The position numbers were made by a program, and so were the translations under genes. Below are positions 993 to 51,695 of a DNA stretch of 64,000 nucleotides, one piece after another. Under the pieces are notes generated by a model. The model did no database searches and had not been told where the DNA came from. It was given only the letters and a program-made list of their open reading frames with translations. Location of the stretch: the NCBI RefSeq assembly GCF_963506605.1, contig NC_083288.1, positions 29,884,001 to 29,948,000 on the forward strand. Reading direction: 5' to 3'. Source of the DNA: Zootoca vivipara (taxonomy: Eukaryota). Position 1 is the first letter of the stretch. The number at the start of each line of letters is the position of its first letter.

Positions 993-2700
993 TTGTGGTT
1001 TTGTCTTTTGGGGCTGTGTGAGAGTAAGTTTGTGTGCTTATTTGTTTTCTTACTTGTTTGTGTGCTTGTGCTGGTTTTCTAGGGCTGCTGCCTCTTGGAT
1101 TTGGGTGACTGTCCAGGCTTGTGTGGGTGTTTGTTTCTGGCTGTGACCTTGTTTGTTTCTGGCTGTGACCTTTCACCTAGAAGTGTGAGTCAGGAAGTTC
1201 AGGTGATTAGCTGTGGGCGGAGCTAGTCAGAGCTTGGAGTGCAGCGACTGAGGAAGGAGCAGAAGGTGAGCTGAGCTTGGGAGACACTCTGTAGGTTTTG
1301 TGGTTTTGTCTTTTGGGGCTGTGTGTGAGTAAGTTTGTGTGCTTATTTGTTTTCTTACTTGTTTGTGTGCTTGTGCTGGTTTTCTAGGGCTGCTGCCTCT
1401 TGGATTTGGGTGACTGTCCAGGCTTGTGTGGGTGTTTGTTTCTGGCTGTGACCTTGTTTGTTTCTGGCTGTGACCTTTCACCTAGAAGTGTGAGTCAGGA
1501 AGTTCAGGTGATTAGCTGTGGGCGGAGCTAGTCAGAGCTTGGAGTGCAGCGACTTAGGAAGGAGCAGAAGGTGAGCTGAGCTTGGGAGACACTCTGTAGG
1601 TTTTGTGGTTTTGTCTTTTGGGGCTGTGTGTGAGTAAGTTTGTGTGCTTATTTGTTTTCTTACTTGTTTGTGTGCTTGTGCTGGTTTTCTAGGGCTGCTG
1701 CCTCTTGGATTTGGGTGACTGTCCAGGCTTGTGTGGGTGTTTGTTTCTGGCTGTGACCTTGTTTGTTTCTGGCTGTGACCTTTCACCTAGAAGTGTGAGT
1801 CAGGAAGTTCAGGTGATTAGCTGTGGGCGGAGCTAGTCAGAGCTTGGAGTGCAGCGACTGAGGAAGGAGCAGAAGGTGAGCTGAGCTTGGGAGACACTCT
1901 GTAGGTTTTGTGGTTTTGTCTTTTGGGGCTGTGTGTGAGTAAGTTTGTGTGCTTATTTGTTTTCTTACTTGTTTGTGTGCTTGTGCTGGTTTTCTAGGGC
2001 TGCTGCCTCTTGGATTTGGGTGACTGTCCAGGCTTGTGTGGGTGTTTGTTTCTGGCTGTGACCTTGTTTGTTTCTGGCTGTGACCTTTCACCTAGAAGTG
2101 TGAGTCAGGAAGTTCAGGTGATTAGCTGTGGGCAGAGCTAGTCAGAGCTTGGAGTGCAGCGACTGAGGAAGGAGCAGAAGGTGAGCTGAGCTTGGGAGAC
2201 ACTCTGTAGGTTTTGTGGCTTTGTCTTTTGGGGCTGTGTGTGAGTAAGTTTGTGTGCTTATCTGTTTTCTTACTTGTTTGTGTGCTTGTGCTGGTTTTCT
2301 AGGGCTGCTGCCTCTTGGATTTGGGTGACTGTTCAGGCTTGTGTGGGTGTTTGTTTCTGGCTGTGACCTTGTTTGTTTCTGGCTGTGACCTTTCACCTAG
2401 AAGTGTGAGTCAGGAAGTTCTTGTGATTAGCTGTGGGCGGAGCTAGTCAGAGCTTGGAGTGCAGCGACTGAGGAAGGAGCAGAAGGTGAGCTGAGCTTGG
2501 GAGACACTCTGTAGGTTTTGTGGCTTTGTCTTTTGGGGCTGTGTGTGAGTAAGTTTGTGTGCTTATCTGTTTTCTTACTTGTTTGTGTGCTTGTGCTGGT
2601 TTTCTAGGGCTGCTGCCTCTTGGATTTGGGTGACTGTTCAGGCTTGTGTGGGTGTTTGTTTCTGGCTGTGACCTTGTTTGTTTCTGGCTGTGACCTTTCA
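993..2700 (+). repeat. Tandem array of 305-bp monomers (5 full copies 1176-2700 plus partial 993-1175) forming the CR1 5' end
   Basis: Near-identical units start at 1176, 1481, 1786, 2091 and 2396. The array ends 100 bp before the ORF1 ATG at 2801. Confidence 0.97.
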
Positions 2701-2800
2701 GTTTGAACCATCTTTTTGATCTAGGGCAGCAAGTCTCACACGTTTGTTAGGGGGGACCTAGGCCTCTTCCTCTTTCCCCCTTGACCTCAAGGTTTTCAAG

Positions 2801-3839
2801 ATGGAGGTGGAGGGAACAACCATTGTCACCTGCAATTCCTGTGCAATGTTTGTTTTCTTGCCAAAGGATGTGGGTAGCTACACCTGCAACAATTGCAAGT
2901 TGGTTGCCCTACTAGAAAACAAGGTTGCCCTTCTGGAAGAGAAGGTGCAGCAGCTTCAGGGGCGTGTATCTATGCTCCAGAGAATTAAAGAGCTGGAGCT
3001 TTTCTTGGATGCAGCAGAGCACACTGTCTGCACCAAGGAGGAGACAGGGGATCTCCCTGAGGAGGAGGTCAGTTCCCCAACACAGCAGCCAGATGTATGG
3101 AGGAACGTGACTCATAGAAGTAGAAGGCCCAGGGATCGCTCTGAGTGCTTAGAATTACACAACCGTTTTGAAGTGCTCATGGAAGACGAGGAACAGACTC
3201 CCCCTGAGGATCTCTCCCTCATCACAGTTGATGAGGAATATGAAGACGAGCAACCAAGTCAGTCCTCTGGATATATGCAGGTAACCTTGGAAGGGACAGC
3301 ACATAGAAGAATCCCAACCAAGCCTATGAAGAGGCGTGTAGTGGTGATTGGGGATTCCCTACTGAGGGGTACAGAAGCAGTGATCTGTGGGCCTGACAAG
3401 ATGTCTCGAGAGGTGTGCTGTCTACCTGGGGCCAAGATCAAAGATGTAACAGAACGTCTGCAAGGAATCATAAAACCCACCGACAAATACCCCTTCCTTT
3501 TGGTGCATGTGGGAACCAATGACACTGCAAGCCATAGCTTACAGAAGATCAAAAATGATTGAGGCTCTGGGCAGGAAGTTGAAGCAATTAGATGCACAAA
3601 TTGTCGTCTCTTCTGTCCTCCCAGTTGAACGACATGGCCCAGGGAGAGAGGGAAAAATAGGGGAAGTGAACAACTGGCTTCGCAAATGGTGCAAACAGGA
3701 ACGGTTTGGATTCCTAGATCACGGTCTGCAGTTTCTTGATGATGGACTTCTGGCAAGTGATGGACTGCACCTCACAAAAGTTGGGAGGAATGTTTTTGCC
3801 ACAAAACTCAAAAACCTCATCAGGAGGGCTTTAAACTGA
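2801..3839 (+). pseudogene. CR1 ORF1 (zinc finger, coiled coil, SGNH/GDSL esterase), frameshifted near 3560
   Basis: CNSC...CNNC, heptad repeat, VVIGDSLLRG and VHVGTND lie in ORF 2801-3562. The protein continues in another frame (EALGRKLK...DGLHL...IRRALN*) to 3839. Confidence 0.92.
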
Positions 3840-3988
3840 CTTATGTGGGGGAGGGAGACAGTGGTCCTGAAGGTAGGAGTCTATCAAATGCTGAAGATGA
3901 TCATCCAAATGTCAAGGACCAAATGGAGCAAGCAGCATGCAGACCTAGTGGTGGGACGAAAATATCCTTAAATAAGAGACATGGGGGA

Positions 3989-6716
3989 ATGATCAACGGT
4001 CTTCAATGTCTGTATACAGCAAACTAAATATGACATAATAGGCATCACTGAAACCTGGTGGGATGAGTCTCATGACTGGAATGTAGTAATAGAGGGATAC
4101 AATCTATTTAAGAGAAATAGACCAAACAGGAAAGGAGGAGGAGTAGCTTTATATGTTAGGGATATGTATACCTGTGAAGAGATCCAGGATTTAAAACTTC
4201 AAAGCCAAATTGAGAGTATCTGGGTCAAAATTAAGGGAGAGAAAAACAACAGTGATCTCATTGTGGGAGTTTACTATAGATCCCCAAGCCAAACTGAGGA
4301 CACAGATGATGCCTTCCTGGAACAGATGGCCAAGCATTCCAAAGGAAGTGAGATAGTAGTAATGGGGGATTTCAACTATCCTGATATTTGTTGGATGTCA
4401 AACTCAGCCAAGAGCATAAGGTCGAACAGATTCCTCACTGGCCTTGCAGACAACTTCATTGTCCAGAAAGTGGGAGAAGCAACAAGAGGATCAGCCATTT
4501 TAGATCTGGTCCTAACCAATAGTGATGACTTGGTTAGTGGGGTAGAAGTGGCAGGATCATTAGGTGGGAGTGACCATGCTCTTCTGGAGTTTATTATCCA
4601 GCGGAAAGGAGCAACCAAGCATACTAAGGTCCAAATTCTAGACTTTAAGAAAGCCGACTTCAGAAAACTTAGGGAAACGCTGGGTGAAATCCCATGGACA
4701 GTAATACTAAAAGGGAAGGGAGTTCATGATGGTTGGGAGTTTGTTAAAAGGGAGATATTAAAAGCACAACTTCAGGCAATACCAATGAGACGGAAACATG
4801 GAAGGTGCCTAAAGAAGCCAGGCTGGCTATCTAAAGAACTTTTGACTGAGTTAAGATTTAAAAGGGATATGTACAAAAAATGGAAAAGGGGGGAAATCTC
4901 CAGAGAGGAATTCAAACATATAGCCAGCACGTGTAGAGACAAAGTCAGAAAAGCTAAAGCACAGAATGAACTCAGGCTCGCCAGAGAGGTTAAAAGCAAC
5001 AAAAAGGGCTTTTATGGGTATGTCCGTAGCAAAAGGAAAAACAAGGAAACAGTGGGGTCACTCAGAGGAGAAGATGGTGAAATGCAAACAGGGGACAGAG
5101 AAAGGGCAGAACTCCTCAATGCCTTCTTTGCCTCAGTCTTCTCCAAGAAAGAAAAAAACGCCCGACCTGAAGAATATGGAGCAGATGATTCAGCAGGGGA
5201 AACACAGCCCAGAATAAGTAAGGAGGTAGTACAAGAATACTTGGCTAGTTTAGATGTATTCAAGTCTCCAGGGCCAGATGAACTACATCCAAGAGTATTA
5301 AAAGAACTGGCAGAGGTGATTTCAGAACCACTGGCAATAATCTTTGAAAATTCCTGGAGAACAGGCGAAGTTCCAGCAGACTGGAGGAGGGCAAATGTTG
5401 TCCCTATTTTCAAAAAGGGGAAAAGAGAGGACCCAAACAATTACCGCCCAGTCAGCCTGACATCAATACCAGGAAAGATTCTAGAGCAGATCATTAAGCA
5501 AACAGTCTGTGAGCACCTAGAAAGAAACTCTGTGATCACTAAAAGTCAGCATGGGTTCCTGAAAAATAAGTCATGTCAGACTAATCTGATCTCATTTTTT
5601 GACAGAATTACAAGCCTGGTAGATGAAGGGAACGCTGTGGATGTAGCCTATCTTGATTTCAGCAAGGCCTTTGACAAGGTGCCCCATGATATTCTTGTAA
5701 AGAAGCTGGTAAAATGTGGGCTAGACAATGCTACCATTCAGTGGATTTGTAGCTGGATTACTGACCGAACCCAAAGGGTGCTCATCAATGGCTCCTCCTC
5801 ATCTTGGAGAGTAGTGACTAGTGGGGTGCCACAGGGTTCTGTCTTGGGCCCAGTCTTGTTCAACATCTTTATCAATGACTTGGATGATGGGCTTGAGGGA
5901 ATCCTGAGCAAGTTTGCAGATGACACCAAGTTGGGAGGGGTGGCTAACACCCCAGAGGACAGGATCACACTTCAGAATGACCTTAACAGATTAGACAACT
6001 GGGCCAAAGCAAACAAGATGAATTTTAACAAGGAGAAATGTAAAGTACTACACTTGGGCAAAAAAAATGAAAGGCACAAATACAGGACGGGAGACACCTG
6101 GCTTGAGAGCAGTACATGTGAAAAGGATCTAGGAGTTTTGGTTGACCACAAACTTGACATGAGTCAGCAGTGTGATGCAGCAGCTAAAAAAGCCAATGCA
6201 ATTCTGGGCTGCATCAATAGGAGTATAGCATCTAGATCAAGGGAAGTAATAGTACCACTGTATTCTGCTCTGGTCAGACCTCACCTGGAGTATTGTGTCC
6301 AGTTCTGGGCACCACAGTTCAAGAAGGATACTGATGAGCTGGAACGTGTCCAGAAGAGGGCAACCAAAATGGTCAAAGGCCTGGAAACGATGCCTTATGA
6401 GGAACGGCTTAGGGAGCTGGGTATGTTTAGCCTGGAGAAGAGAAGGTTAAGGGGTGATATGATAACCATGTTCAAATATATAAAAGGATGTCATATAAAG
6501 GAGGGAGAAAGGTTGTTTTCTGCTGCTCCAGAGAAGCGGACACGGAGCAACGGATTCAAACTACAAGAAAGAAAATTCCACCTAAACATTAGGAAGAACT
6601 TCCTGACAGTAAGAGCTGTTCGGCAGTGGAATTTGCTGCCAAGGAGTGTGGTGGAGTCTCCTTCTTTGGAGGTCTTTAAGCAGAGGCTTGACAGCCATCT
6701 GTCAGGAATGCTTTGA
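3989..6716 (+). pseudogene. CR1 ORF2 (AP endonuclease plus reverse transcriptase) with an out-of-frame deletion at the N-terminus
   Basis: LQCLYT joins out of frame to [15 protein letters not shown] at about 4017. It is then open to 6716 with [28 protein letters not shown] and KFADD. Confidence 0.93.
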
Positions 6717-7114
6717 TGGTGTTTCCTGCTTGGCAGGGGGTTGGACTGGATGGCCCTTGTGGTCTCTTCCAACTCTGATTCTATGATTCTATGATTCTAT
6801 GATTCTATGATCTAATAGTACAACTTTTACAATACATATTGTTGAAATGAGAGTGTGGCAGATTAGCTGTACTGTTCATAACCAAACCTGAATGATTCAG
6901 TAAAACAAAATAAATTCAGAACCTCCATGGTGTGTGTATGGGGTGGGGGGTTAATTACAAATCACCAAATATATATGCTTACAAATACATGTGGGATCTT
7001 GTACAGATTCAAGATGGTGAAATCTGGTTTACATCTTGTACAGTGAGAGTGCTAAGTGACAGATAAGAGATCTATTGATCCCTGCCTCCAGTTTGTATAT
7101 GATCACATACATAC

Positions 7115-7945: not shown

Positions 7946-8899
7946 CTACTGAAGAAAATGGAAGATTTCGTTCTTAGAAGATTTGATCGATGCAAATAAT
8001 TTTGACAGGGCAATTTTCATATCCTTGTTTCGCATGCTGTAGATCACAGGGTTCAGCAGTGGTGGAACCACAGAATATATCACAGCAAAAAACAAATCTT
8101 GCTGTGATGTGGTACTATACATAGGACTTAGGTAAGCAAACCACCCAGTTAATAACAACATGGAGATAACAATGAGGTGAGGAAGACAAGTTGAGAAGGC
8201 TTTTTGCCTTCCCTGAATAGAAGGCATTTTTAACACAGCACTGAAAATATGGGCATAAGTTACTACAATGAAGAAGAGGCAACCTGATTCAATGAAAATA
8301 CTCAGCACGATAGCTCCAATTTCTGTTAGGTTCAAACCAGAGCAGGAGAGCTTGAGCAACTGTGGGATTTCACAGAAAAACTGATTGACAACATTGGAGC
8401 AGAAGGGGGTTGCAAAGGTGCCTCCAGTGTGTAGCACAGCACAGAGAAGACCAGTGATCCATACACAGGCAATCATGTGGACACAGGCTTGCTTGTTCAT
8501 CAGCTTCTCATAATGTAATGGGTTGCAAATGGCAACATACCGATCATATGCCCTGACAGTCAGGAGAGAGACATCAGATACTAAAAAGAAGACAAATAAG
8601 AGAACTTGAGCAACACACCCAGAGTAGGAAATTTCTCTGGTATTCATGAGGGAATTAGCCATGGAATTGGGAACAATGACTGAAACAGATCCAAGGTCCT
8701 GTATGGCCAAGTTCATCAGAAAGAAATACATGGGGGTGTGCAGTCGGTGGTCAAAAGCTACTGCAGAGATGATGAGAAGGTTGGCTGTTACTGTTGCCAA
8801 GTACAACACCAGGAATAGAAGGAAGTGAAAAATCTGCATTTCCCGAACCTCTGAAAACTCTTTGAGCAGGAACTCTGATACAAAGGATTGGTTCGCCAT
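7946..8899 (-). CDS. Olfactory receptor, OR14-like, 317 aa
   Basis: Has an NQS sequon, LHTPMYFFL, RAYDRYVAIC, QFFCEIPQLLKLSC, KAFSTCLPHL and PPLLNPVIYSMRN. An upstream acceptor (ctttcttcgacag) is at about 8930. Confidence 0.93.
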   Translation of the reverse strand: MANQSFVSEFLLKEFSEVREMQIFHFLLFLVLYLATVTANLLIISAVAFDHRLHTPMYFFLMNLAIQDLGSVSVIVPNSMANSLMNTREISYSGCVAQVLLFVFFLVSDVSLLTVRAYDRYVAICNPLHYEKLMNKQACVHMIACVWITGLLCAVLHTGGTFATPFCSNVVNQFFCEIPQLLKLSCSGLNLTEIGAIVLSIFIESGCLFFIVVTYAHIFSAVLKMPSIQGRQKAFSTCLPHLIVISMLLLTGWFAYLSPMYSTTSQQDLFFAVIYSVVPPLLNPVIYSMRNKDMKIALSKLFASIKSSKNEIFHFLQ

Positions 8900-9116
8900 G
8901 GTTTTCGCCTTATGAAAGTGTGGGCTGCCTGTCGAAGAAAGCAGTCAACTGTTAAAATAATAGCACAGTGCTGTAAGAAGACAGGCTTCAATTGGGAAAT
9001 TTCAATTTGTTCTTACTGTGATTGTTTTTATGTCTGCAGAATTCATTCTAGTTTATGGCTGTTATTTTGAGACATTTCTCATGCTCTGAATCTGACAGCC
9101 AGGCATTGGCAAGGAG

Positions 9117-9245: not shown

Positions 9246-11935
9246 TAGAATAGGAGATAGCAGGGTTTACTCTGGGTTTGCTCTGAATAGGGATACCCAT
9301 TAGTTCAACTACTACCTTATACAAAATTGCTTACATCTTTAGCAGGAGTATATTTTTTGCATGAAACAAGGAGGCTGTAATAGCAATAGGTGTGTGGACC
9401 ATGCCAAGAAATTGAGACCCTGACAGGGAAGCAGCTCTTCCTATCCTTATCAGAGTGGTGACACAGTAACACCATATTCCAGGTGTTAAGGGTTTTATCA
9501 GGTCTGTTTTTCCATGGCTTTTTTATTCCCGCAAATACCATGATGGGGGAGGCATAAGTCCAGGTGTAGATCTACTATGAAACTCATGGATCGTCGAGAA
9601 CAGGAGCCGGGTGTCCGACCATTGACACCCGGCGGGAACTGCTGCCACCCGCGCACGGGTGCCGGGGGAGCCCGGCGGATTGATCGGGGAGCCGTCAGGG
9701 CTCCCTGTCCCTGCTCCCCCACCCGCAGATCGTGGCGAACCATGGCCGGGAGCGCCTGGCCTCCGGGACTTGTGGTCCTGGGGAGGTGAGCCCAGACCTC
9801 GTGGCCGCCGCCGCCATTGCCACCGCTGACGGCAAAGAAGTGTGGAGAAGGGGCCTGATCCGAGCCCTTGCCACCTCTGCCGCTGCAACGTTGCGCCGGG
9901 ATTGTACGGCCGTCCAGGGCACCAGGGCCAGTAGAGCCCACGAACCTGCCCCCTCCATCCGTTGGTGAGACGGAGGCAGATCAACATCTAGAGGAGGGCC
10001 TTGATTGCAGAAAAGGCCTTGATTGCAGACTGAGGCCGTGAGGAAACACACACACGGCCAAGCCTAGGCCCGGCCTGAACCTACTTCACCGTTGACAGGT
10101 GAGCCGAAGGTAGCCCAGAGGGAGGCCTATTGAGGAGGATCTCAAAAAAATTATTTTTTCTATTTTTTGAATATTTTCAGCGGATTTTTTTTAACAAAAA
10201 TATTTTTCTTTTCTTTCTCTTTTTCCCCTCTCCCCCCCATTTTTTTTTTAGTGGAAACTAGGATAAATAGAAATCCCCCTTTTTATTTATTTAACAAAGA
10301 AAAAAAAGCCAAAAGACTTTACCCAATATTTTTTAGTGTTCTTGCCATTTATCACCTCCATCTCCCATCTTTTGACATACGACCCCCCTTTCTTTTTGTA
10401 CATTTTGGACTTTTGAGGGGACGCAGCATAAAGCAAAGATGGGGGGGGCAAGCTCCCGGCCCTTTTGCTTAATTTCTTTCATTTTCAAGCTATTGTCCTC
10501 TTCCTCCAACCTCTTATGCCTTGGTTTGGCTCTGTTTTTTTCCCCTCCTTGATGCATAGAGGTGCCCTTTGGAACCCCTCATAGACTTTTGCAGCCCCCC
10601 ATATCCTCTCATTATTTTTGATCTCCATCTCACTGGTTGCTTCCCACCCTCACCTTTGTCTTCTATCCCCTTTCTCTTTTTCTCTCTTTCCTTTTCAGTT
10701 ACTTCTTTCCCCCTTCTGGATCAAACCTCCTCCTAACCTAATCTGTCTATTGACCTCTCTCCAAGGAGGAAGCCTTTCCTCCCACCTGTCACCCCCCCCC
10801 CCCTTGAAGACAGTTGTCTTTGTCTTGCCTTTGTCTTGCATCCTTCATTCCAATACATAATCCTTCTCTTTAAACCCCTTCCAAAGTACTCAATTCCCCT
10901 TTATTCATTTTTCCTTATCTTCCCCTCCTACCCCACTTCTCATTCCCCCATCTCTTCTTTTGTTTTACACCCTCTTTGTTCGCTGGAGTGCTTGTTTGTC
11001 TGTCTCTAAATCGAACCTCCCCTCTTTCGCTTGTTTGTTTGTCTACTTTCGCCTGTTTGGCTGTCTGTCCATTGGTTTATCCGCCTCTCTGAGTACCTGA
11101 CCACCAGAGAAGTTCTTACAACATTACCAAGGGATGACACAAATGATTGCCTAAACCGAACGCTCTGCAGAAGCCACCAGTCAACAACGCCTGACTAGTC
11201 CAATAACCCAACACCCAGAAATCATCACCGCCATAACCCCTAACCGCAACACGTCCCACTCCAAGAGAATGCCAAACAAACCCCAAACCAAAAACGCCAA
11301 GGAGATGAAGGTGTCACCAACTAAAAAGATGGTAAATAACATTGAGACTGCAACACCTCCTCAAAATGATGAAATATTACAACACCTACCGGTAAGAGTA
11401 ATGGAAGAGAGGATGACAAGTAAACTGGAAGCTTCAGTGGAAAACGCAACGACCCCCATACAGCTACTAATCAGCAATCTTACCTCCAGAGTGGAAGCTC
11501 TAGAAAAGAAGAATCAACTGCAAGAAAGAACAATAGAGCAATACCGGGATGAAACCACACGTATGAATAAGAAATTGTATGAACTGGAAAGAGAAAATGA
11601 AGAACTGAGAATTAAACAAGCAGACATCGAAGACCAAAACAGACGCTGCAACATCTGCTTCCGCAACTTTCCAGAAAAAGCAGAGGAGAAAAGCCTAGCA
11701 GACCTAATAGTAAGCTGGTTGAAATATACAATCCCAAATCTGACACTCGAGGTATCCAATCTGGAGAGGGCACACAGAGCTCTAAAAGTTATGCCAAAAC
11801 CTGATGCCCACCCAAGAGACATCATAGTGTGCTTTTCATGCTACAGAAAAAAGGAGGAGATATGGAACAGCCTCAGAAACTCAACCAACCTCCAATACAA
11901 AGACAATTCCATATTGGTCCTACAAGATTTATCCA

Positions 11936-12348
11936 GGGAGGCCTGGAACATTGCTGCTGCTACTGCTCTGCCAGGGAGTGTTTGGGAGGACTGCTCCCCC
12001 TGAAGCCCACTTCCACCTGGGGCTTGGGGCGGGTCCCCCACTCCACCACAGCTTTTGAGGCTCCTGGGAGGCCTGGAACATCACTGCTGCTGTGAGTACT
12101 GAAAGGACTGCTCCCCCTGAAGCCCACTTCCACCTTGGGCTTGGGGCGGGTCCCCCACTCCACCACAGCTTTTAAGGCTCCTGGGAGGCCTGGAACACTG
12201 CTGCTGCTGCTGCTCTGCCAGGGAGTGTTTGGGAGGACTGCTCCCCCTGAAGCCCACTTCCACCTTGGGCTCGGGGGCGGGACCCATACTCTACCACAGC
12301 TTTAAGGCTCCTAGGAGGCCTGAAACTGCTGCTGCTGCTGCTGCTCTT
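11936..12348 (+). repeat. L2 5' tandem monomers (about 117-130 bp, 3 copies plus a partial)
   Basis: GGAGGCCTG units start at 11936, 12066, 12183 and 12313. Each full unit has (CTG)n, CACTTCC and GGGGCGGG. Confidence 0.9.
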
Positions 12349-12822
12349 CTTGTAATTCTGATGTGTTTGTAACTTTTATTGTTTTTGGTTTTTGTTGTTT
12401 ATCGTTTAGTTTGTTAGTTTGTTTTCTGTATTGGTTTTAAATTCGATTTTAAGGGGAGGGGTTAATCTTAGTTTGTAATTTTCTGTCTTTGTTTGTATTG
12501 TTTTATTGTATTAGTTTGTTTTCTGTATTGGTTTTAAATTTGATTTTAAGGGGAGGGGTCAATTTTAGTTTGTAATTTTCTGTCTTTGTATTGTTTTATT
12601 GTATTTTTTTATTTACATAGGTTTTAGGGGGGATTTTTAGTTGGGTGTGGGAATCTGTTAAATTTTAGTGTATTTGTAATTTTTATTGTTTTTGGTTGTA
12701 TTGCGTTATTGTGTTTTTTGTGTTTTTCTTTTGTTCTGTTCTTTGCTGTTTTTTACAGAGGTTTTATTTTGTTTTTAAGGGGAGGGGTCAGGGCTGCCCG
12801 GGAGGGGGTCCCAGCAAGCAAA

Positions 12823-15800
12823 ATGGCTGGGGCAGATTCCACAGGGGGGGATGCACTGGAACAACCGATCTCAGTGGTCACGGGTAGGAGGAGGAGTTAC
12901 GCTAAGACCAGACCATGTCATTACCGAGGAGGCAGACTTAGTCGTTGTCTGAAGACTATCCCTGCCTCTGGGTCTGGTCCTGACCGGACGGATATTGGAA
13001 TCAGCAAGGGATACCCACATGACCTGAAGGTGCTGCTGTGCAATGCCAGGTCGATGATGAATAAGACCACTGCCATTCACGGCCTGATTGTGGATGGAGG
13101 ATTTGACCTGGCATGTGTGACAGAGACCTGGTTAGATGAAGCCGATGGGCCCGTTCTTGGCGCTGCTTGCCCACCAGGCTTCTCTTATGCACAGCAACCC
13201 AGGCCATCTGGGCGGGGAGGGGGGGTTGCAGTGATTTTTAGGAAGTCATTAGTTTGCACCAGGCGCCCTATTGGTAAGACTGAGTTTTCTGAGTGCATGT
13301 TCTGGAAGTTGGGCAATAGGGGCAGTACAGGATTCCTTTTGGTGTACCGACCTCCCCTCTGCACCAAGGATTCCCTGCCCGAGCTGCTTCAGGTCGTGTT
13401 GGATGTGCTCCTGGAGACACCTAGCTTGGTTGTCTTAGGGGATTTTAACATCCATGCCGACACGACCTTACAAGGAGCCGCTCGGGACTTCGTGGAAAGC
13501 ATGGCCACCATGGGGCTGTCCCTGAATAAGTCTGGCCCAACTCATAGCCGCGGACATGCCTTGGACTTGGTGTTTACCTCTATGGATGTTGGTGATCTGA
13601 CATTAAGTAAAAGTGAAACAAAAGAAGTGCCATGGTCAGATCACTTTCTGGTGCAACTGGACTTCTCCGCAACCCTTCCCCTCTGCAGGGAGGTGGGACT
13701 GATTCGGATGGTCCGCCCCCGCTACTTAATGGATCCAATTGGCTTCCAGAGAGTGGTAGGGGATGTTTTATCCCATGTCGATGGCCTTTCAGCTGATTCC
13801 CTGGTGGCCCGCTGGAATGCGGAGTTAACCAGCGCTATTGACTGTCTGGCTCCGAAGCGCCCTCTCAGATTGCATGGAGCCCGGACAGCCCCGTGGTTTT
13901 CCCCGGCGCTGAGGGCGATGAAACAGTCGTTGAGACGGCTAGAGCGCCGGTGGCGGAAAACTCATTTTGAATCAGACCGGACACGGGCTAGAGCTCAACT
14001 TCGAGCCTACCAAGTGGCAATGGCGACGGCGAAGAGGACCTTCTTCACCTTCTCCATCGCATCTGCAGAAAACAGCAGCAGGAGACTCTTCCAGGTGGTT
14101 CGCAATTTAGCGGAACCACCTGCTCCATCGGGGCCCAGTACGGGCCACATGATCTCCTGCAATGATTTTGCAAAGTTTTTTGCAGATAAAGTCGCTCAGA
14201 TTCGGGAAGAGGTAGACTCCACCGTGGGAGCAGGGCCGGGGCGGGGGAGTGCTAGAGTCCTGTCTAGTCAAGTTTTGTGGGATCAATTTCAATCTGTTAC
14301 CTCCGAGGATGTGGACAGGCTGCTTGGACGAGTGAAACCAACCACCTGTCTCCTTGATCCTTGCCCATCCTGGCTTATAAAAGCTAGCCGGGAAGGGCTG
14401 GGCGATGGGCTTCGCGGGTTGGTAAATGCTTCTCTCCATGAGGGAGCCTTCCCAGACCCGCTGAAAGAGGCGGTTATTAAACCGCTTCTTAAAAAACCAT
14501 CTTTAGATCCGGCCAATATGGCCAACTATCGCCCAGTCTCAAATCTTCCATTCTTGGGCAAGGTGATTGAGCGAGTGGTTGCTGAACAACTTCAGGCATG
14601 CCTGGAAGAAGCGGACCATTTGGATCCCTTCCAGTCAGGATTCAGGCCTCATCATGGGACTGAAACTGCCTTGGTCGCACTGGTCGATGATCTCCGGCGG
14701 GCTAGGGACAAAGGTAAGAGCTGTTTCCTTGTTCTGCTGGATCTCTCAGCGGCTTTTGACACCATCAACCATAACATCCTTCTGGACCGTCTAGAGGGCT
14801 TGGGAGCTGGGGGCACTGTCATGCAGTGGTTCCGCTCCTTCCTCCTGGGCCGTGTTCAGAAAGTGGTGGTGGGGGATGAGTGTTCAGACCCCTGGGCTCT
14901 CACTTGTGGGGTGCCTCAGGGTTCTGTCCTCTCCCCCATGCTTTTTAACATCTATATGCAGCCGCTGGGAGAGATCATCAGGGGGTTTGGGCTAGGTGTC
15001 CATCAGTATGCTGATGATACCCAGCTCTACCTCTCTTTTAAATCAGAGCCAGTGAAGGCGGTGAAGGTCTTGTGTGAGTGCCTGGAGGCGGTTGGAGGAT
15101 GGATGGCGGCTAACAGATTGAGATTGAATCCTGACAAGACAGAAGTACTGTTTGTGGGGGACAGGAGGCGGGCGGGTGTGGAGGACTCGCTCGTCCTGAA
15201 TGGGGTAACTGTGCCCCTGAAAGACCAGGTGCGCAGCCTGGGAGTCATTTTAGACTCACAGCTGTCCATGGAGGCACAGGTCAACTCTGTGTCCAAGGCA
15301 GCTGTTTATCAGCTCCATCTGGTACGCAGGCTGAGTCCCTACCTGCCCACTGACTGTCTCTCCAGAGTGGTGCATGCTCTAGTTATCTCCCGCTTGGACT
15401 ACTGCAATGCGCTCTACGTGGGGCTACCTTTGAAGGGGACCCGGAAGCTACAACTAATCCAGAATGCGGCAGCTAGACTGGTGACGGGGAGCGGCTGCCG
15501 AGACCACATAACACCGGTCCTGAAAGACCTACATTGGCTCCCAGTACGTTTCCGAGCACAATTCAAAGTGTTGGTGTTGACCTTTAAAGCCCTAAATGGC
15601 CTCGGTCCGGTATACCTGAAGGAGCGTCTCCACCCCCATCGTTCTGCCCGGACACTGAGGTCCAGCGCCGAGGGCCTTCTGGCGGTTCCCTCACTACGAG
15701 AAGCCAAGTTACAGGGAACCAGGCAGAGGGCCTTCTCGTTAGTGGCACCCACCCTGTGGAATGCCCTTCCACTAGAGGTCAAAGAGAACAACAACTACCA

Positions 15801-15855
15801 GACCTTTAGAAGGCATCTCAAGGCAGCCCTGTTTAGGGAAGCTTTTAATGTTTGA
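12823..15855 (+). CDS. L2 endonuclease-reverse transcriptase, uninterrupted, about 1010 aa from the first ATG
   Basis: [45 protein letters not shown] and SRLDYCN with no stops. Confidence 0.93.
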   Translation: MAGADSTGGDALEQPISVVTGRRRSYAKTRPCHYRGGRLSRCLKTIPASGSGPDRTDIGISKGYPHDLKVLLCNARSMMNKTTAIHGLIVDGGFDLACVTETWLDEADGPVLGAACPPGFSYAQQPRPSGRGGGVAVIFRKSLVCTRRPIGKTEFSECMFWKLGNRGSTGFLLVYRPPLCTKDSLPELLQVVLDVLLETPSLVVLGDFNIHADTTLQGAARDFVESMATMGLSLNKSGPTHSRGHALDLVFTSMDVGDLTLSKSETKEVPWSDHFLVQLDFSATLPLCREVGLIRMVRPRYLMDPIGFQRVVGDVLSHVDGLSADSLVARWNAELTSAIDCLAPKRPLRLHGARTAPWFSPALRAMKQSLRRLERRWRKTHFESDRTRARAQLRAYQVAMATAKRTFFTFSIASAENSSRRLFQVVRNLAEPPAPSGPSTGHMISCNDFAKFFADKVAQIREEVDSTVGAGPGRGSARVLSSQVLWDQFQSVTSEDVDRLLGRVKPTTCLLDPCPSWLIKASREGLGDGLRGLVNASLHEGAFPDPLKEAVIKPLLKKPSLDPANMANYRPVSNLPFLGKVIERVVAEQLQACLEEADHLDPFQSGFRPHHGTETALVALVDDLRRARDKGKSCFLVLLDLSAAFDTINHNILLDRLEGLGAGGTVMQWFRSFLLGRVQKVVVGDECSDPWALTCGVPQGSVLSPMLFNIYMQPLGEIIRGFGLGVHQYADDTQLYLSFKSEPVKAVKVLCECLEAVGGWMAANRLRLNPDKTEVLFVGDRRRAGVEDSLVLNGVTVPLKDQVRSLGVILDSQLSMEAQVNSVSKAAVYQLHLVRRLSPYLPTDCLSRVVHALVISRLDYCNALYVGLPLKGTRKLQLIQNAAARLVTGSGCRDHITPVLKDLHWLPVRFRAQFKVLVLTFKALNGLGPVYLKERLHPHRSARTLRSSAEGLLAVPSLREAKLQGTRQRAFSLVAPTLWNALPLEVKENNNYQTFRRHLKAALFREAFNV

Positions 15856-16015: not shown

Positions 16016-19000
16016 CCCAGGACACCCTAAATCGGAGAAAAAACCTACGCCCATACACTCAGCTTCTTCAGCAAAAAGGGATTCGGTACTGCTGGGGCTT
16101 TCCCTTCCGTCTCATTGTGGCAACCGATACAACACAGTACATGGCTACCAACGAAACGGAAGCCCAACAACTATTGAGGATCCTTGGGTTGGATCGGCAA
16201 CAGAAAGACCTACCAAGTGACAGCTGAGATCAAGAAAATGGAATAACAGTAAATGAATGGATGGAAGTAAAGAGGGGAAAGAGACAACAGAAACAACACA
16301 TCAAGACTCGCCGGTACAACCATCTACCATCGCGCACAAAGTCATTCTACCGAACATTCTCCACAGGATGTCAGACCATGATCAACCGAACCAAAACATC
16401 ACTGAGGAACAGCCCAACAACAACAACAACAATCACAGCTGAATGAAGCAACCGGAAAACATCTTGAACAGCAGGACTGGTGATTCCCCTCCCCTCCCTC
16501 CCCCCTCCCCATAGGCCTTAAACATAGCTAACATCATCAATATTTCCCCCCCCAACACCATACCTCCATAGAACCTACCCCCATCCCAACCCCACCCCGA
16601 CACCAGTCCAGACAACCTCAATCATATTCCCCATCAACCACAACCCATATCTCCAGTATCCCTTCCATACCAAACAAGAGAAAAACAACTCCCCCAACAT
16701 CCATAGCACAACTCACTATCAGGCTAAAACATGATACCTATTCAACAACATGGTGACACCAGAGCGCGCCAACACATACACACACTCTAACACATCAGTG
16801 ATGTTGCTATTAACATTGGCAACATTGCTCACAAACCTTATACCTGACACTAACATTACAAAACTACTCTACACCGTCTCACTGATCACCCCCTGTTGCA
16901 AACGACGAAGGGGAAGGCCTGTCCCTGAGTACAGCCCTTCACATCAGCCGAGACCCAGGACCAACTGGCTAATCGCCAAAAGGTCCAAAATACCCCAAAC
17001 GAACACCTATATAACTATATATAGGAAACCCTCTATAACTTACCCCCTTCTCTTTAACCCGATTCTAATTTTAATCCCATTGGACCCCCACCCACCACAC
17101 AATAAGTCAGCGCAACCCCAATGGTTCAGTACACAACATGAAGTGAGGGACATAGGACAACCCAGACGGGTTGGCAAGGAACCTTCCTACAGAATAAATA
17201 AACAAGATGGCTAGCTTAAAAGCAATCACATTACATGTGAGGGGACTGGGAAACCCCATCAAGAAAAAATGTATCACCTCATACATAAATACCATGAAAC
17301 CACACATCACCTTCCTACAAGAAATACACAACCCACCCAAAGGGAACAAACTCCTGAATGACCCTCACTTTAGTCAACAATGGGTGGCACAAGGCTCAGG
17401 AAAGGCCCGCGGAGTAGCTGTAATACTTAGTAGGGACCTAAATTTCAATGCCACAACAATCCTAAAGGACAAAAAAGGCAGATTCATTTTCATTAAAGGA
17501 ATACTAGATGGCAAAATTAAACTGACAATTGGCTCACTATATGGCCCTAACTCGAGACAACTCGAATTCTTTCAAAAGACACTAAACAAGTTCCTTTCTT
17601 TCTCTGAGGGGGAAGCAATCCTGGGTGGTGACCTTAACTTAAATATGAAAGGCGTAACTCTAAAAAAACACCCATCCTACAAAACCACAGGCAACCCTCC
17701 TCAAAAAATACACCCCCCAACAAATAGGGGCTCTTACAAGTTGCTAAAATTGTTGAAAAACAGGGGTCTTTACGACATTTGGGGCAAACACAACCCGGGA
17801 GACACCACCCACACATTCCAGTCCAGACACCATGGTACAACGTCCAGACTGGACAGCATCCTGCTCAGGCAGGGTCTGATCCCTTTAGTAGAATCAACAA
17901 ACAAAGGTAGTATCAAAATCACAGATCACGCCCCAGTAGAAGTCACTGTTAAAATAAGAGAGGGAACACAAACTACCCCATCATGGTCTTTCAGTCCCAT
18001 CCTAACCACAAACAACCAAATTAAAGCAAATCTCATAAAAACTCTCCTTAAAACTATTTTAAGGAGAACGATAGAGACAATATAAATACCCCCCTCTTAT
18101 GGGACGCAATGAAAGCGGTGACCAGAGGAGCTTGCATAAAAGAGAAAGCACTTCTTAAAAAACAAACCTCTTCAATAATTAACAAGATAGAACAAGACAT
18201 CATTGCCCTCTCATCACGTTACAAACAAACAGGATCCAAAAAATCTACTTAAACTTCCAGAACAAAAGAGAAGAGAATTAGACTCCTTAGAAATCAATAA
18301 AACAATGATCAATATTTTATATTCTAAACAGCGCTTCTATGAGTACGGAGGGAAAAGCTCCAGACTGTTAGCAAATAGATGCAGGAAAAAAACACTTAAG
18401 ACAAGAATACACTGCATCACCAAAAAAGACGGCAACATAACATTTTCCCCGAAAGAAATGACCTCTGAATTTGCAGAATTCTACTCCAATCTGTACACCT
18501 CCCACAACCCAACTGAGGAGGGAATTAGAAAATTCCTAACAGGACTGACCATGCCCACCTTAACCGATGAGGAACAAGAATTCATGGACAGCCCTATCAC
18601 CCCTGAGGAAATAGATACAGTCCTTAAAAACTTGAAACCACACAAAGCCCCGGGCCCAGACGGCTTCACAGCAGAATTCTATAAAAAATTCAAAGAACCC
18701 CTGATGCCCTACATGATACGCCTATTTAATGATATCATGCAAGGGGGGCTCATTCCCAAAACATGGAATCACTCCAAAATAGTCTCCATCCCAAAACCAT
18801 TGAAGGACAACCTCAAAGCAGAATCTTACCACCCAATCTCATTAATAAATCAGGATTACAAGATATTCACATCAATCTTGGCCAATCACTTAAAAATCTT
18901 CCTAGGCAATTTAATAGTCCCAGACCAGACCGGCTTCGTCCCTGGTTGCAATATTACAGACCCCATCAGAAAACTACTAAACTTAATCGAACACAGCAAG

Positions 19001-21799
19001 ACAATTAAACTTCCACTGACAATTATGTCCCTATGTATCCTCAAAGCTTTTGATTGCTTAGAGTGGAAATACTTATTAGCAGTACTAACTAACATGAAAT
19101 TTGGCCCCAACTTCCTACAAATCCTCAAACAAATATATTCTCAAGCCTCAGCAAACTGCAGAATTAATAATATGGACTCAAACACCATAGTAATCCAAAG
19201 AGGCACAAAACAAGGATGTCCGCTGTCTCCATTCTTATTTATCCTGGCTTTGGATCCCCTAGCAATCCGAATCCGAGCAGCCACAGACATCAAGGGAGTG
19301 GAAATAAAAGGCAGAAATTATAAATTAGGGCTCTTTGTAGATAACCTAATGGTCACAACATCAGACCCCTTACATACAGCAACCTCCCTAATCAGAGAAC
19401 TCAACACATTTGCAATGGTGTTGGGCCTACAAGTAAACTTTGGAAAATCAGAAGCCATGTGCTTCAATACCCCTCCCCATATCCAAAAAGAACTTACTAA
19501 TATCACCAAAATAAAACTTTGTCACACCAAATTCAGATACCTAGGGGTACAAATAACAAAGAACCTCAATAAATTATACCTCCATAATTACAAGCCCCTG
19601 TGGCGGCAAATAAACAAAAACCTAAAGAGATGGGACAGTATGAGTTTCACTCTTTCAGACAAGATAGCCATGGTCAAAATGGTCACCCTCCCAAAACTAA
19701 CCTACCTATTCCAAACCCTCCCAATCTGGATCCCCCCAACCCAACTTCGCAAATGGCAGGGAAAATTACTCTCTTTTATTTTCTCACATAAAAAACCAAG
19801 GATTAGCACCAAATACCTTTACCTCCCCACTTCAGCAGGAGGATGGGGAATCCCCAACATAGAAACATACTACAACGCCAACCAAATACGCCATATAATC
19901 CCATATATACTAGAATACAAGACAAAACAATGGATACACCTGGAGAGGGACTCAATTTAAAATATCTGCACCACAGCATACCCGTTCCTCCCAAACAAAC
20001 TAAGGAAGATTCCCACAACGCTCAACAGATACACACAAGCCATGTTAAAAGCATGGAAAGCAGAAACTAGTAAACTATCTCCAACCCCATCCCCATTTAT
20101 TCCCCTAGTTTACCATCCATTGTTCCATCATGCAGTACAAAACCTCCAGATGAATACCTGGCAAACCAAAGGTTTACATCGCTTAATAGACTTCTATAAA
20201 GACAACAAACCTTTGTCAACACAAGAAATACAGAACAAACTAGAAGACATCCCAATGCCCTGGTTAGCACAACATCAATTACATGCCTTTCTAAATAACC
20301 CAACTGTAAAATCAGCAGCAACTAGACCCCTGACAACTTTCAAAAACCTCCTCCAAATGTCAAAAGGGCACGGAAAAGGGATGGTATCTGCAATATACAA
20401 AATACTACTTCAAAATCCCACAGATCCCCTGGACAAGACAAAACGACAATGGGGGGATGACATAGGATATGAAATCGACTTCCGGTTTCCCGCGGATCAG
20501 CTTCGGACGCGCCGGCGGGTCGCTCTTCGCTAGCGCACTCGAAAAGGGCGGATAGGGGGGGCATTGGGCTTCAAAGCCCCCCTCCAAAAAGGTCGTGGAG
20601 GGTTTCCAGACCTAACTGATCGGCAGCAGCGTCGGGGAAGCTCCGGCACCAAGCGGACAAGCGCGGTGGAGAGGAACCTCCCCGGGACGCCTACCTTAAG
20701 ATCCCGCCCCAGCCGAGAAAGCCAGAAAAACCCGAAGCAAGCAAGCGGTGAAACCTCCAAGGGAATTACCCGACCTAAGGTAATACGCAGCTCTCCCAAG
20801 CCCGGAGGTCTTTTGAAAGACCGAGGGAAGCGGTGAATTATAGGGAGAAAGAGAAGGTCGGCAAGCTAATTTAATGGCGGTGCAGGAAATCACCTCTGCA
20901 GCGTTCCGCTTTGCTTAAAAACCAACTCAACAACATCAAAGATTGCAAGAAAATAGTTACTCTTTTCGCTCTTTGGGCTGCCTGAAGAACGGTAGACACA
21001 TTTGTAGCAGTAATCCCTGAGAATTTGTAGCAGTCAACGGAGGGTAAGGACAAAGCGGGATAACAACATTGTAGCAGTAATTCCTGAGAAAGGTATTATC
21101 TTTCTTTTCTTTTCACTGGAGTTCTGTCGGATGGGATGGACTTAAAATGACTGAACTGTAAAAGATACTACTCCCCTCCAAAGCTTACCATGATTGAAAC
21201 ATATGAGATTGAATCGTATCGGAAATAACTTTGGGGAGGAATTTCTGGCACTTAAGAAGGAATTTGGAGGAACAGTTATGAGAAGAGCTTAAAAGATTTT
21301 TGAACCTTTTCCTTTTCTTGAATCCTTCCTTGTTATTGGCTAAATAGGATATCATATTGGCAAGTGACTTTATCTGAACTGCTGAGTCACAGCGGGAACA
21401 AGAAAAAAATCTTTGCTCAGGACAACGCTATTTAGAAAGAGCGCCACCTCTAGGAAGATGGTAATAAGGCATCCAATAACCTAAAATTTATATAACTCAC
21501 AGCCATAGCCTCCACCCAGAGAATAAACAAAAACTTTTTTTGGAGCAGCTTGCTGGGTGAGCAAGAGGACAAGAGGAGCAGCCAACAGTCAAGGAAGTTA
21601 AAGACTTCTGTTAACAGCAGATATATTGTGACTAATTATTTTTTGGTTAGCTCTTTGTTTTAGCATTGCCAAACCAAAAAGACTGCATTGTGAACACCCC
21701 ACCCCCCCTGATTTTGACTTCACATTCCTCTTTCTTCTCTTTTTTTTTTTGTTGTTGTTGCCGGTTTATATATATATACACAAGGAGTGTTGGGGAGAT

Positions 21800-22801
21800 A
21801 TGGGATCCCAAAGAGAGGGGGTCAACAAAAAATTGGCAACTTCTGCATTAACAGGGAACGTTGGCAACCAAGCTAGAAGAGGGTCAGGAGCAGATATGGA
21901 TGCAAATTTGGACGTGAAAGAATTAATTTTAAGTTTAAAAAGGGACATTGTCGATATGAAAAAAGATGTAAATGAAAAATTGGATAGTTTTGGGGAAAAG
22001 ATAGACGGGAATGCTAAGATTGTAACAGAATTAAGTGAGAAGATGAATGAACTGGGAAGAAAAAATGCAGAGCTTACGACAATAGTGCAAGATCTAAAAG
22101 GCAAGACTATAAGCCTAGAAGAGTCAGTGAGGAAATTACAGAATGAAAACAGGGAATTGAAGAGGGAGGGGGAACGGGTAAGGAAGGAGATGGCTGAAAT
22201 GAAACAAACACATGAGGCTGTGATGGATGCAGTCTCTATGATTGAGATGCATAGAAGAGAGAACACCTTGAGACTAAGAGCTATACCAGAGAAACCGGAT
22301 GAGCAAATTGGAAAGAAAGTGACTTTAGAGCTTGCCAAATGGTTAGAAATTAGCGAACATGAAATGGAACAGCATATAGACAGGACTTTTAGAATAAGAT
22401 CAAAGGTTGCAAAGGAAAATAATTGGCCGGGGGATTGTTTGGTAACCTTCAAAACGTTAGATATTAGAGATAAAGTCCTGCAAATGAGTAACAAAAAAAG
22501 ATTACAAATTGATGAGAGCGATGTAATTATTCATAAATATATACCTTCCAGATTCTTGAAAAAACGGGAAAAATTCAAGCCATACGTAGAAGCACTGAGA
22601 GGGAAAACGATAACCCATCGATGGGAATATCCAGAGGGGTTTTCGTTTTTCTTTAAAGGTAAAAGACGAAAGTTTATGGTGCCAGAAGACGCAGCGAAAT
22701 ATTGGAGAAAATATTCGAAACAATTAGGAAAAGTGAGAAGGGCAAGTGGAGGAGGGGAAGATTCGAATTCTGATAACCCAGTAGAAGTGGAAGAGAGCTA
22801 G
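21800..22801 (+). CDS. L1-B ORF1p, 333 aa from the first ATG
   Basis: Long coiled coil followed by RRENTLRLRAIPE, IDRTFRI, PGDCLVTF and HRWEYPEG, typical of L1 ORF1p. Confidence 0.88.
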   Translation: MGSQREGVNKKLATSALTGNVGNQARRGSGADMDANLDVKELILSLKRDIVDMKKDVNEKLDSFGEKIDGNAKIVTELSEKMNELGRKNAELTTIVQDLKGKTISLEESVRKLQNENRELKREGERVRKEMAEMKQTHEAVMDAVSMIEMHRRENTLRLRAIPEKPDEQIGKKVTLELAKWLEISEHEMEQHIDRTFRIRSKVAKENNWPGDCLVTFKTLDIRDKVLQMSNKKRLQIDESDVIIHKYIPSRFLKKREKFKPYVEALRGKTITHRWEYPEGFSFFFKGKRRKFMVPEDAAKYWRKYSKQLGKVRRASGGGEDSNSDNPVEVEES

Positions 22802-23025
22802 AGAGGTGGATTTTTGTGTGTTAAGTCTTTATTATTGTAATTATTCAACCAGGAGTTGAAACTGGTATATTTTCATTTGGTTCTGATTTGTAGTTTGGTG
22901 AATCGTTCTTCTTTATTTTAAACTATTATCTTTCTTCATAATAAAGTGAATAAAAGCAATCGGGGGAAAAAAAGGGGGGGGAAATAATATTAAAAATAAA
23001 ATAAAATAATAATAATAATAGAGGA

Positions 23026-26000: not shown

Positions 26001-26790
26001 AGTAAGTTGGTTAGATTACCATCAATTAAATGAAGCTTTTAAGGAGGACAAAAAAATAGGATTCAATTCAGAAATGTCCAGATTAGAAAAAGATCTGATG
26101 AATAGTAATAATAAGACAATATCTAAAATGTATCACCTCCTGCTTGAGCTGGAAGTAATGGACGAAGCAGTGAAAGAAGTCATGATAAAATGGGCCCAGG
26201 ACTTTGGCTATGCAATTATGATGGAGGAATGGGAAAAGCTGTGGGAACACAATATGAAATTCACGGTATCATATACGATTAAAGAAAATATGTATAAAAT
26301 GTTATACCGGTGGTATCTTACGCCCTCCAGGCTGTCTAGAATGTATAAAAGCATTGCAAATGTATGTTGGAGATGTGGAGAGGCAAAAGGAGATATGATA
26401 CATATGTGGTGGACCTGCCGCAAAATTAAAGTGTTTTGGAATCAGATACATGAGGAGCTGAAAAAAATGCTTAAGATCAACTTCACAAAAAAGCCAGAGG
26501 CTTTTCTCCTCGGAATCCTGAACACAGATCTGCCAGTAAAATACAGAGAGCATTTCCTGTACGCGACGGCGGCAGCCCGCCTGCTGATAGCTGCCAACTG
26601 GAAAGGAGATAAAATCCCCACAGTTGGCGAGTGGCAAGTTAAGCTATTGGGTTTTATGGAAATGGCTCAGCTAACTGATAGTTTAAAGGGAAAATCCAAA
26701 CAGGCATTTATGGAAAAGTGGGAAAAATTTAGGAATTATATGCAAGAAATTGATAATAGGAAAGGAATCTTCATGGCAGTTTTGAATTGA
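23026..26790 (+). CDS. L1-B ORF2p, 1254 aa
   Basis: TWNVNGL, CLQETH, GDLN, SDH, DAEKAFD, GTRQGCPLSP, YADD and CWRC...HMWWTC with no interruptions. Confidence 0.97.
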   Translation: MNLKFLTWNVNGLNEKTKRNKVEHELIRQKIDVICLQETHVMQKHIRVLSNKKLGQEFISAHNTKKKGGVVIYAKNYLEPKLLFKDSEGRIVIIEITSQGEKIVIIGIYAPNKRQKKFYQKLEKKLIEYVAEKTILLGDLNGVIAPDIDRSHKKNGKSSKQSKLPVIFSQAMETLHMKDAWRTKHPMKREYTHFSEPNKTSGRIDAIWIPNELTVSIAKAEIQPRTLSDHNPVLVWINKGMSGFKRWKVNESLMYDEVIIEKAKETLQEFFKFNLHKETPITTVWDAGKAVIRGFFINQSAIQKKEKEKKIQKLRDEIRKYEVDLDKDPKNEKIKQNVKILQTQYSMILEEDIQRKIKMLRQKNFEQANKPGKLLAWQLKNRQNERVINKMKQGENYTSNPKEIEKIFLDFYRELYSEGKETDEEVKGYLEKNNLGKIPKEYIKDLNARITTFEISQAIKKAKLGKSPGPDGLSAIYYKRLEETVTDPLKEIMNNVLENGEMPLTWGESYLTLIPKQGTDLSLPSNFRPISLLNNDYKLFASILADRLKNVLTTIIHEDQAGFLPKRLMQHNIRNIINIIEYLDMKIDKPGVLIAVDAEKAFDQISWKFMRATMEQMEFGKLFCNGIRAIYTRQRTRLLVNNNISNECDIHKGTRQGCPLSPLIFILVMEILNNKIREEKEITGVTLGRRTYKLRAYADDLIVTTENPKESIRKMLEIIEEFGKVAGYKLNNTKTKMLAKNLSMDEKIEIERLTQLKFCGKIKYLGIWISPKNINLYQDNYTKVWEEIKRNLINWNKLRLSFLGRISVIKMSILPKLIFLFQNIPIIRNTGCIKEWQKEISRFIWHGARPRIKHKLLIDRKERGGFGLPDLNLYYEAACFTWLKDWFLLQRTSQLDLEGFDLRFGWHAYVHYDKTKVHKGFSNHIIRGSLYKVWAKYKNLLEPKTPLWISPVEAKAVRKKTNKDKWATYRSLLIKEDEQFKLKGYDEVKNELVSWLDYHQLNEAFKEDKKIGFNSEMSRLEKDLMNSNNKTISKMYHLLLELEVMDEAVKEVMIKWAQDFGYAIMMEEWEKLWEHNMKFTVSYTIKENMYKMLYRWYLTPSRLSRMYKSIANVCWRCGEAKGDMIHMWWTCRKIKVFWNQIHEELKKMLKINFTKKPEAFLLGILNTDLPVKYREHFLYATAAARLLIAANWKGDKIPTVGEWQVKLLGFMEMAQLTDSLKGKSKQAFMEKWEKFRNYMQEIDNRKGIFMAVLN

Positions 26791-51670: not shown

Positions 51671-51695
51671 TCTGTGTGTGAAAATAATTGTGTGT

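Follow-up and report, generated by a model that had tools for sequence, protein, structure and literature searches.

The DNA considered in the current analysis, referred to here as the window, is a stretch of 64,000 nucleotides of Zootoca vivipara (contig NC_083288.1, positions 29,884,001 to 29,948,000 of the forward strand). A full-length LINE of the CR1 type has been identified on the plus strand at 993-6811, and its 5' portion is made up of tandem units of 305 bp (Table 1). A vomeronasal-type-2-receptor-like exon (ANF_receptor, E-value 1e-19) lies at 194-712 of the minus strand, and the oppositely oriented CR1 element follows shortly after it. Five ORFs that resemble olfactory receptors by eye are also encoded in the window, at 7946-8944, 50756-51694 and 56856-57926 on the minus strand and at 32600-33535 and 43110-44123 on the plus strand. 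An element assigned by eye to an L1-like family occupies 21632-26790 of the plus strand, with an open ORF1 of 389 aa and an ORF2 of 1261 aa, and a GC-rich tandem unit of 104 bp is repeated 2.4 times at 46674-46914 within a local GC peak.

A second LINE with a 5' array has been found in the window. About three units of 117-130 bp with a GC box, together with T-rich repeats of 97 bp, span 11930-12605 and lie directly 5' of a LINE ORF2 of 1075 aa (12628-15855, ATT tail at 15972) which we take, by eye, to be of L2 type. This LINE is flanked by pieces of an L1-like element (11155-12003 and 17198-19960), and a motif of its unit is present twice, 117 bp apart, at G000:C16:11770174.

Table 1. Features of the CR1 element and of its 5' array, in positions of the window
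Feature	Position	Strand	Remarks
305-bp monomer array, CR1 5' leader	993..2700	+	unit position 1 (mid-intron) to 183
Internal 22-bp duplication of each unit	1128..1172	+	only one copy left in 14 loci
Motif cluster (AP-1-, ETS-, E-box- and GC-box-like)	1186..1220	+	unit 194-228; TGAGTCA starts at 1186 and again at 1491, 1796, 2101 and 2406
9-bp inverted repeat around the GC box	1204..1229	+	predicted RNA hairpin, -10.9 kcal/mol; every 305 bp
Initiator-like GTCAGA	1226..1231	+	A at 1229 = unit 237; also A at 1534, 1839, 2144 and 2449
Putative first exon, 37 nt	1229..1265	+	unit positions 237-273
122-nt GT-AG intron	1266..1387	+	AAG/GTGAGC ... pyrimidine tract CTAG/GGC; kept in the window copy
Further intron repeats	1571-1692, 1876-1997, 2181-2302, 2486-2607	+	all retained
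Patch: units 5-6 and start of the unique UTR	2219..2745	+	L057/L060-lineage alleles; ends approximate
Deletion junction, window copy only	2700..2701	+	last motif cluster, last putative start site and GC-rich hairpin linker are all missing
Unique 5'UTR (tether)	2701..2800	+	100 bp between array and ORF1
ORF1: CxxC pairs, SGNH/GDSL esterase-like part	2801..3839	+	frameshift near 3560
ORF2: AP endonuclease and reverse transcriptase	3993..6716	+	907-aa open frame; ~50-nt deletion near 4017
8-bp tandem 3' tail, CR1-type end	6776..6811	+	TGATTCTA x4.5

The ORF2 comprises the Pfam domains PF03372, PF14529 and PF00078. The C-terminal piece of ORF1 matches PF13472 with an E-value of 8e-6, which is under the Pfam cut-off because the frame of ORF1 is broken in this copy. 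Members of the family are without poly(A), and in 87 of 95 copies the 5' and 3' flanks have no overlap longer than 6 bp. These ORF2 domains, the esterase-type ORF1 (a CR1 trait according to PMC13343379), the 8-bp tail and the short or absent target-site duplication agree with a placement of the element in CR1.

An earlier sequence-only reading of the window had described 5.6 units of 305 bp right ahead of ORF1, and TRF agrees, giving a period of 305, 5.6 copies and a match of 99% for an array that ends ahead of the ORF1 ATG at 2801; the units differ from one another at 0-6 bases. The 5'-most unit is partial, as was stated there, in the phase used by that reading or in the phase of the start site, and in the TRF phase it is the 3' unit that is partial. 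Unit positions are numbered here with position 1 at window 1603. Within the motif cluster the ETS-like CAGGAAGT lies at 1191 and then every 305 bp, CAGGTG lies at 1200, 1505, 1810 and 2115 and is missing from unit 5, and GGGCGG lies at 1215, 1520, 1825 and 2435 with GGGCAG instead at 2130. All the motif positions of the earlier reading, with the loss of the E-box in unit 5 and of the GC box in unit 4, are therefore correct. AP-1, ETS, E-box and GC box are used as labels for matches to common consensus sequences. All four motif types fall within 45 bp in 1 of 5000 dinucleotide shuffles, a figure that refers to motifs picked after inspection of the sequence. The ETS site is not constant across the family, since 22 of 100 loci have another allele only, and a comparison of motif constraint by within-family variation had no power because all regions vary little. 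Neither TATA nor CCAAT boxes are present in the 305-bp unit, which is CpG-poor (2 CpG per unit, o/e 0.13). No sense ATG occurs in the unit, nor in the unique 5'UTR upstream of ORF1; its absence from the unit is not significant as a sign of selection, 353 of 2000 dinucleotide shuffles being equally free of ATG.

The copy in the window is not a typical member of its family. Its units 1-4 and its ORFs carry alleles of a lineage other than L057/L060, and the patch listed in Table 1 is, judging from its alleles, a recombined or converted segment that makes the copy a mosaic. The GC-rich hairpin linker lost at its deletion junction is present in typical copies, and the element starts in the middle of an intron. 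With a frameshifted ORF1, a deletion in ORF2, a junction found in no other fetched copy and a mid-intron start, it is therefore a dead, chimeric and atypical member.

The family as a whole has been followed through the genome in several searches, one of them directed at an older subfamily that is described below. A search with the monomer gave 228 candidate places, 39 of which were scored, and in all the 38 other scored loci a CR1 body ~97-98% identical to that of the window directly follows the array. A 24-mer taken from the motif cluster has 412 exact matches, and the 100 that were listed represent 31 loci. In every one of these loci (31/31) the array is joined to the CR1 UTR, as an exact anchor shows for 28 and fetching for 3. 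No free monomer array is found among these 38 scored and 31 listed young loci, which are distributed over many chromosomes. A set unbiased with respect to the array was drawn with a 27-mer of the unique UTR (133 matches, 100 listed, all 100 fetched). Removal of L083, L084 and L090 as segmental duplicates leaves 97 independent copies; L082-L084 and L089-L090 (G000:C2) represent segmental duplications of the same insertion with common flanks. The monomer is present in 90 of the 97, and the other 7 are truncated within the UTR. The number of clusters is 0 in 7 copies, 1 in 32, 2 in 21, 3 in 10, 4 in 7, 5 in 5 and 6 to ~51 in 8, the two longest arrays having been counted across overlapping stretches. 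Thus the monomer, which had been expected to lie always 5' of CR1 in varying number, does so; nor are the other copies all single-unit, as two or more clusters are carried by 51/97, one cluster only being the commonest class (32/97). The family is young: mean body divergence is 0.65% (102 copies), and both ORFs are open in 75 of 102 full-length copies. Except for the duplicates, no 5' flanks are shared among the 108 flanks compared.

The 5' ends of the copies are phased with respect to the unit. They fall at unit positions 228-248 in 51 of 90 copies, where 6.2 would be expected if uniform (p 2e-35), and 26 of the 90 end at 235-238, with modes at 237 and 238; ends are scattered over 228-258. 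A second cluster of ends is found at 270-275 (9/90, plus 4 equivalent ends in spliced units). Sibling copies begin at many different units. The modal position coincides with the A of the initiator-like GTCAGA, a sequence in agreement with the human initiator consensus BBCA+1BW (PMC5287114), and in mouse L1 a phased truncation of this kind has been read as a start-site signature that matched CAGE (PMC6454616). RNA polymerase II therefore likely starts near unit position 237, and the named motifs would likely sit 9-43 bases upstream of the start. The earlier description of the promoter as internal does not hold well with this arrangement, in which a daughter copy would lose the preceding cluster.

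Not all clusters appear equally able to direct a start. Where the GC-rich linker comes after the last cluster, with no exon 1 or donor, 1 of 39 phased copies starts there, and where exon 1 and donor come next 4 of 21 do so, a small and post hoc contrast (p 0.046). This suggests that a start needs sequence from about +19 onward. The four starters had no cluster downstream, and a downstream cluster is therefore not required. That a working start needs an upstream cluster together with a downstream exon 1 and donor, and hence at least one intact unit junction, is a proposition for which we would give even chances. In two raw RNA runs few monomer reads are found, mostly in one direction and with no pile-ups at a start, at a low depth (64 and 22 reads from ~6% of each run of standard RNA-seq).

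Duplications of 14-20 bp of the first bases of the element have been observed at the 5' junctions of L047, L073, L086, L100, L121 and L141. They suggest re-priming at the 5' end of the RNA and are a possible seed of stepwise array growth.

Each unit also contains an intron, a feature that the sequence-only reading missed. The commonest internal junction in the arrays is an exact loss of the 122 nt between donor and acceptor, seen in 46 loci and 100 junctions, and one or more spliced units are carried by 46 of the 90 copies of the unbiased set. In L046 and L109 another GT serves as donor for this acceptor, and in L117 the donor is connected with an AG of the linker. The spliced joint, GT..AG, occurs in 1 and 4 RNA reads and is also found in a DNA run; in the run X23 another allele is present in 13/13 reads at one diagnostic site. 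With the low depth, the allele in X23 and the joint in DNA, these reads are not a proof of ongoing splicing. Folds of the exon and intron stretches were no better than those of shuffles.

Of the mixed arrays, 27 begin at the phase. In 13 of these only the first intron has been removed, in 3 several leading introns, and 11 show other patterns, most of them having a spliced unit close to the 3' end in common with siblings. The '108' clade, whose members have near-identical bodies, includes the patterns s, sI, sII, sII, sIIII, ss and ssssssII, plus fully unspliced siblings. In s, sI, sII and sIIII the 5'-most intron is spliced at any array length; splicing therefore seems to be decided per transcript, with the 5'-most intron favoured. 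When all arrays are pooled, including the duplicate L090, the difference between first and later introns (22/47 and 39/109, p 0.21) is not significant. Preferential splicing of the 5'-most intron fits with a cap just upstream, as in cap-proximal splicing. Siblings of the 'IsI' clade, whose bodies are again almost identical, begin at different units and carry a spliced unit that they have inherited, and in one clade a spliced unit second from the 3' end is common to many siblings. A source with a spliced unit must therefore have kept jumping.

The arrays also carry the marks of growth. Higher-order repeats composed of spliced and unspliced units have been identified in L074, L079 and L108. An array of ~19 units on C3 has a private variant in 14 inner units that is not found in the sibling L036. 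The longest array, of ~51 units (15.5 kb) with one CR1 (G000:C2:60206654-60222158; L149, L150, L095), shows no differences in the stretches walked and may represent a satellite-like expansion or partly an effect of assembly. These repeat patterns show that the arrays expand at the level of DNA, and the description of the promoter as renewable is supported by the expansions and the higher-order repeats. In many lineages a deletion stops at the 3' foot of the hairpin in the linker, probably as the result of a template jump. In L049 (G000:C6:2806098-2809146) the array is present twice, with ~490 bp of other sequence between.

Loose read ends furnished an exon-1 motif with which an older subfamily has been searched; 27 places were obtained and 20 were fetched, a sample biased to copies reaching exon 1 because the search motif sits in it. 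UTR and ORF1 stretches of these 20 are ~77-87% identical to those of the window. The older copies have the same donor, acceptor and approximate 5' phase as the young family; 9 of the 20 are spliced, 9 unspliced and 2 neither, and in the three copies with two exon-1 units the first is spliced and the second is not (3/3). The young and older units are mostly ~80-100% conserved except for positions 151-206, where the aligned older copies have no ETS site and another GC box and E-box. The motif cluster is therefore not specially conserved. No CR1 body match is found behind the unit in 6 of the 20 loci. The claim that this CR1 family independently evolved its array is not supported, since the unit predates the subfamily and 5' subunit arrays of CR1-group elements have already been noted (PMC13343379).

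With fair confidence, the array can be regarded as the 5' leader of a young CR1 family in which each intron-bearing unit likely serves as a start module, and RNA likely arises from any unit that keeps exon and donor. The start module of a unit would comprise the motif cluster, the initiator and the 37-nt exon. With Pol II starting near position 237, a daughter copy would keep only the units downstream of its start, and the cluster preceding it would be lost. The cap-proximal intron would be spliced most often; splicing would spare the cluster and exon 1, so that spliced units of 183 bp could stay usable, and unequal exchange, slippage and recombination between copies would rebuild the array. 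Points against this reading are the scatter of the 5' ends with their second cluster at 270-275, the hairpin arm that coincides with the main cluster of ends, the 32 of 97 copies with a single cluster and the pooled intron test that was not significant. We propose more tentatively, and at somewhat less than even chances, that the monomer is a complete miniature transcription unit of upstream cluster and downstream exon with 5' splice site, that one promoter is lost per jump and regrown in DNA, and that the genomic copies form a fossil record of the process.

A different possibility is a self-renewing internal promoter, in which the start is set by sequence downstream of +1, the cluster acts as a position-free enhancer and a copy with one unit is self-sufficient. 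Extra units would then only raise the dose, which is near the view of the sequence-only reading. The apparent need of starts for downstream sequence (1/39 against 4/21) would suit it, as would the prevalence of one-cluster copies and the single unit of most older copies, and promoters of initiator plus downstream elements occur in Drosophila LINEs. Such a promoter would nevertheless have to work in a daughter whose first unit lacks bases -3 to -1 of the initiator and the whole cluster, and bases +28 to +32 fit the DPE consensus in only 4 of 5 letters. The larger sibling clades of the tree ('108', 'IsI', '162' and 22-bp-deletion) moreover include multi-unit members and hence had multi-unit sources. 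We consider a promoter of this kind unlikely.

The phase could also be produced during reverse transcription, if the enzyme halts, or the ends are trimmed by fold-back, at the GC-box hairpin of longer read-through RNAs, the array being a transcribed and spliced leader repeat and not a stack of promoters. With its outer stem to 1238 the hairpin is predicted at -15.2 kcal/mol and spans unit 206-246; its 3' arm (229-246) coincides with the span of 5' ends, and the 70-nt stretch gives a better fold than 99% of its base shuffles. The older subfamily has this stem too, with perfectly complementary arms, and RNA reads include joins to host flank. The enzyme, however, would meet the last hairpin first, yet only 1/39 phased ends are there, although the last hairpin is predicted to be at least as strong as the internal ones in 3 of 4 paired folds (about equal in the fourth, both weak). 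The stronger linker hairpin (-22.6) has only ~2/97 ends beside it (L126, L127), the removal of the first intron alone points to a cap, and no 5' transductions are seen among the 108 flanks. Rfam gave 0 matches to a ribozyme or other RNA family in window 1500-2200. Stops at the hairpin are thus quite improbable as the source of the phase. That the array is an independent minisatellite, a local amplification or an assembly artefact, as the two very long arrays (~19 and ~51 units) and the six older loci without a CR1 body match might suggest, is very improbable indeed, being largely refuted by the attachment of all the scored and listed young arrays to the CR1 5'UTR on many chromosomes, and array structure tracks element lineage in the within-family tree.

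If the array is indeed a series of start modules that are lost and regrown, genomic copies would record the choice of start site and cap-proximal splicing in the germline, and the LINE would lose one working promoter per jump and survive only through regrowth of its array in DNA. The family offers a start prediction at a single base, a natural deletion series and natural pairs of spliced and unspliced units. It bears on how LINEs with upstream promoter parts avoid erosion and on whether a 5' splice site aids LINE transcription. To our knowledge CR1 promoters have barely been described, and stacks of intron-bearing promoters may be a general and overlooked design of vertebrate CR1. Most vertebrates have CR1 as their dominant retrotransposon (PMC13343379).

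By analogy, the array likely works like the monomer promoter of mouse L1Md and keeps spare promoters. The A, Tf and Gf subfamilies of L1Md also have a variable number of tandem units before a tether and ORF1, with phased 5' truncation (PMC6454616, PMC9022269, PMC10620060, PMC5381506), and share rare arrays of ~50 units, recombination between copies and fewer units in older subfamilies. In mouse Tf a short ORF1-proximal unit next to the tether is likewise without a start peak (PMC10620060). Additivity of the mouse monomers has been stated (PMC10620060, PMC6454616), and in reporters the effect of unit number is non-linear (PMC9022269). The mouse monomers differ in being CpG-island-like, in contrast to the CpG-poor lizard unit, and in having a YY1 site; the mouse YY1 cores quoted contain ATG or CAT-CTT, and the CR1 unit, having no sense ATG, therefore has no CAAGATGGC core; nor is any YY1 core evident when the unit is read through. 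The CR1 unit further differs in its spliceosomal-type intron; in the available portions of the mouse studies splicing is unmentioned (PMC6454616) and no monomer intron appears (PMC10620060). Anolis L1 5'UTRs are described as being without tandem duplications (PMC5381506).

Vertebrate CR1-group elements with 1-5 subunits of 100-500 bp near the 5'UTR have been reported (PMC13343379, legend of Fig. 4). Those subunits belong to ORF1-less elements only, and the main text, as far as available, assigns them no function, start phase or intron; the present family, unlike them, has an esterase ORF1 and up to ~51 units. The squamate CR1 paper PMC11303007 makes no mention of tandem, monomer, promoter or splicing. 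Intron-bearing CR1 monomer promoters were not found in the literature, and supplements, subscription papers, Repbase or Dfam may describe them. CR1 and L1 are separate clades. The CR1 arrangement may be likened to that of Drosophila HeT-A and to the redundancy of LTRs, where a redundant neighbouring copy furnishes a promoter situated ahead of the start, whereas in CR1 the redundancy is a variable array inside one element, apparently rebuilt in DNA.

The SpIREs of human L1 are retrotransposed RNAs spliced within the 5'UTR (PMC5860796), and the exact loss of a GT-AG intron from the 5'UTR of retrotransposed copies is common to both. Human SpIREs have lost factor-binding sites and, as a rule, are dead ends (PMC5860796). 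In the present CR1 family, by contrast, neither the cluster nor exon 1 is removed by splicing, about half of the copies carry a spliced unit, and the spliced units are passed to siblings and duplicated again, which is not the behaviour of a dead end. Such inherited spliced units contradict the rule, derived from human L1, under which 5'UTR splicing leads to a dead end.
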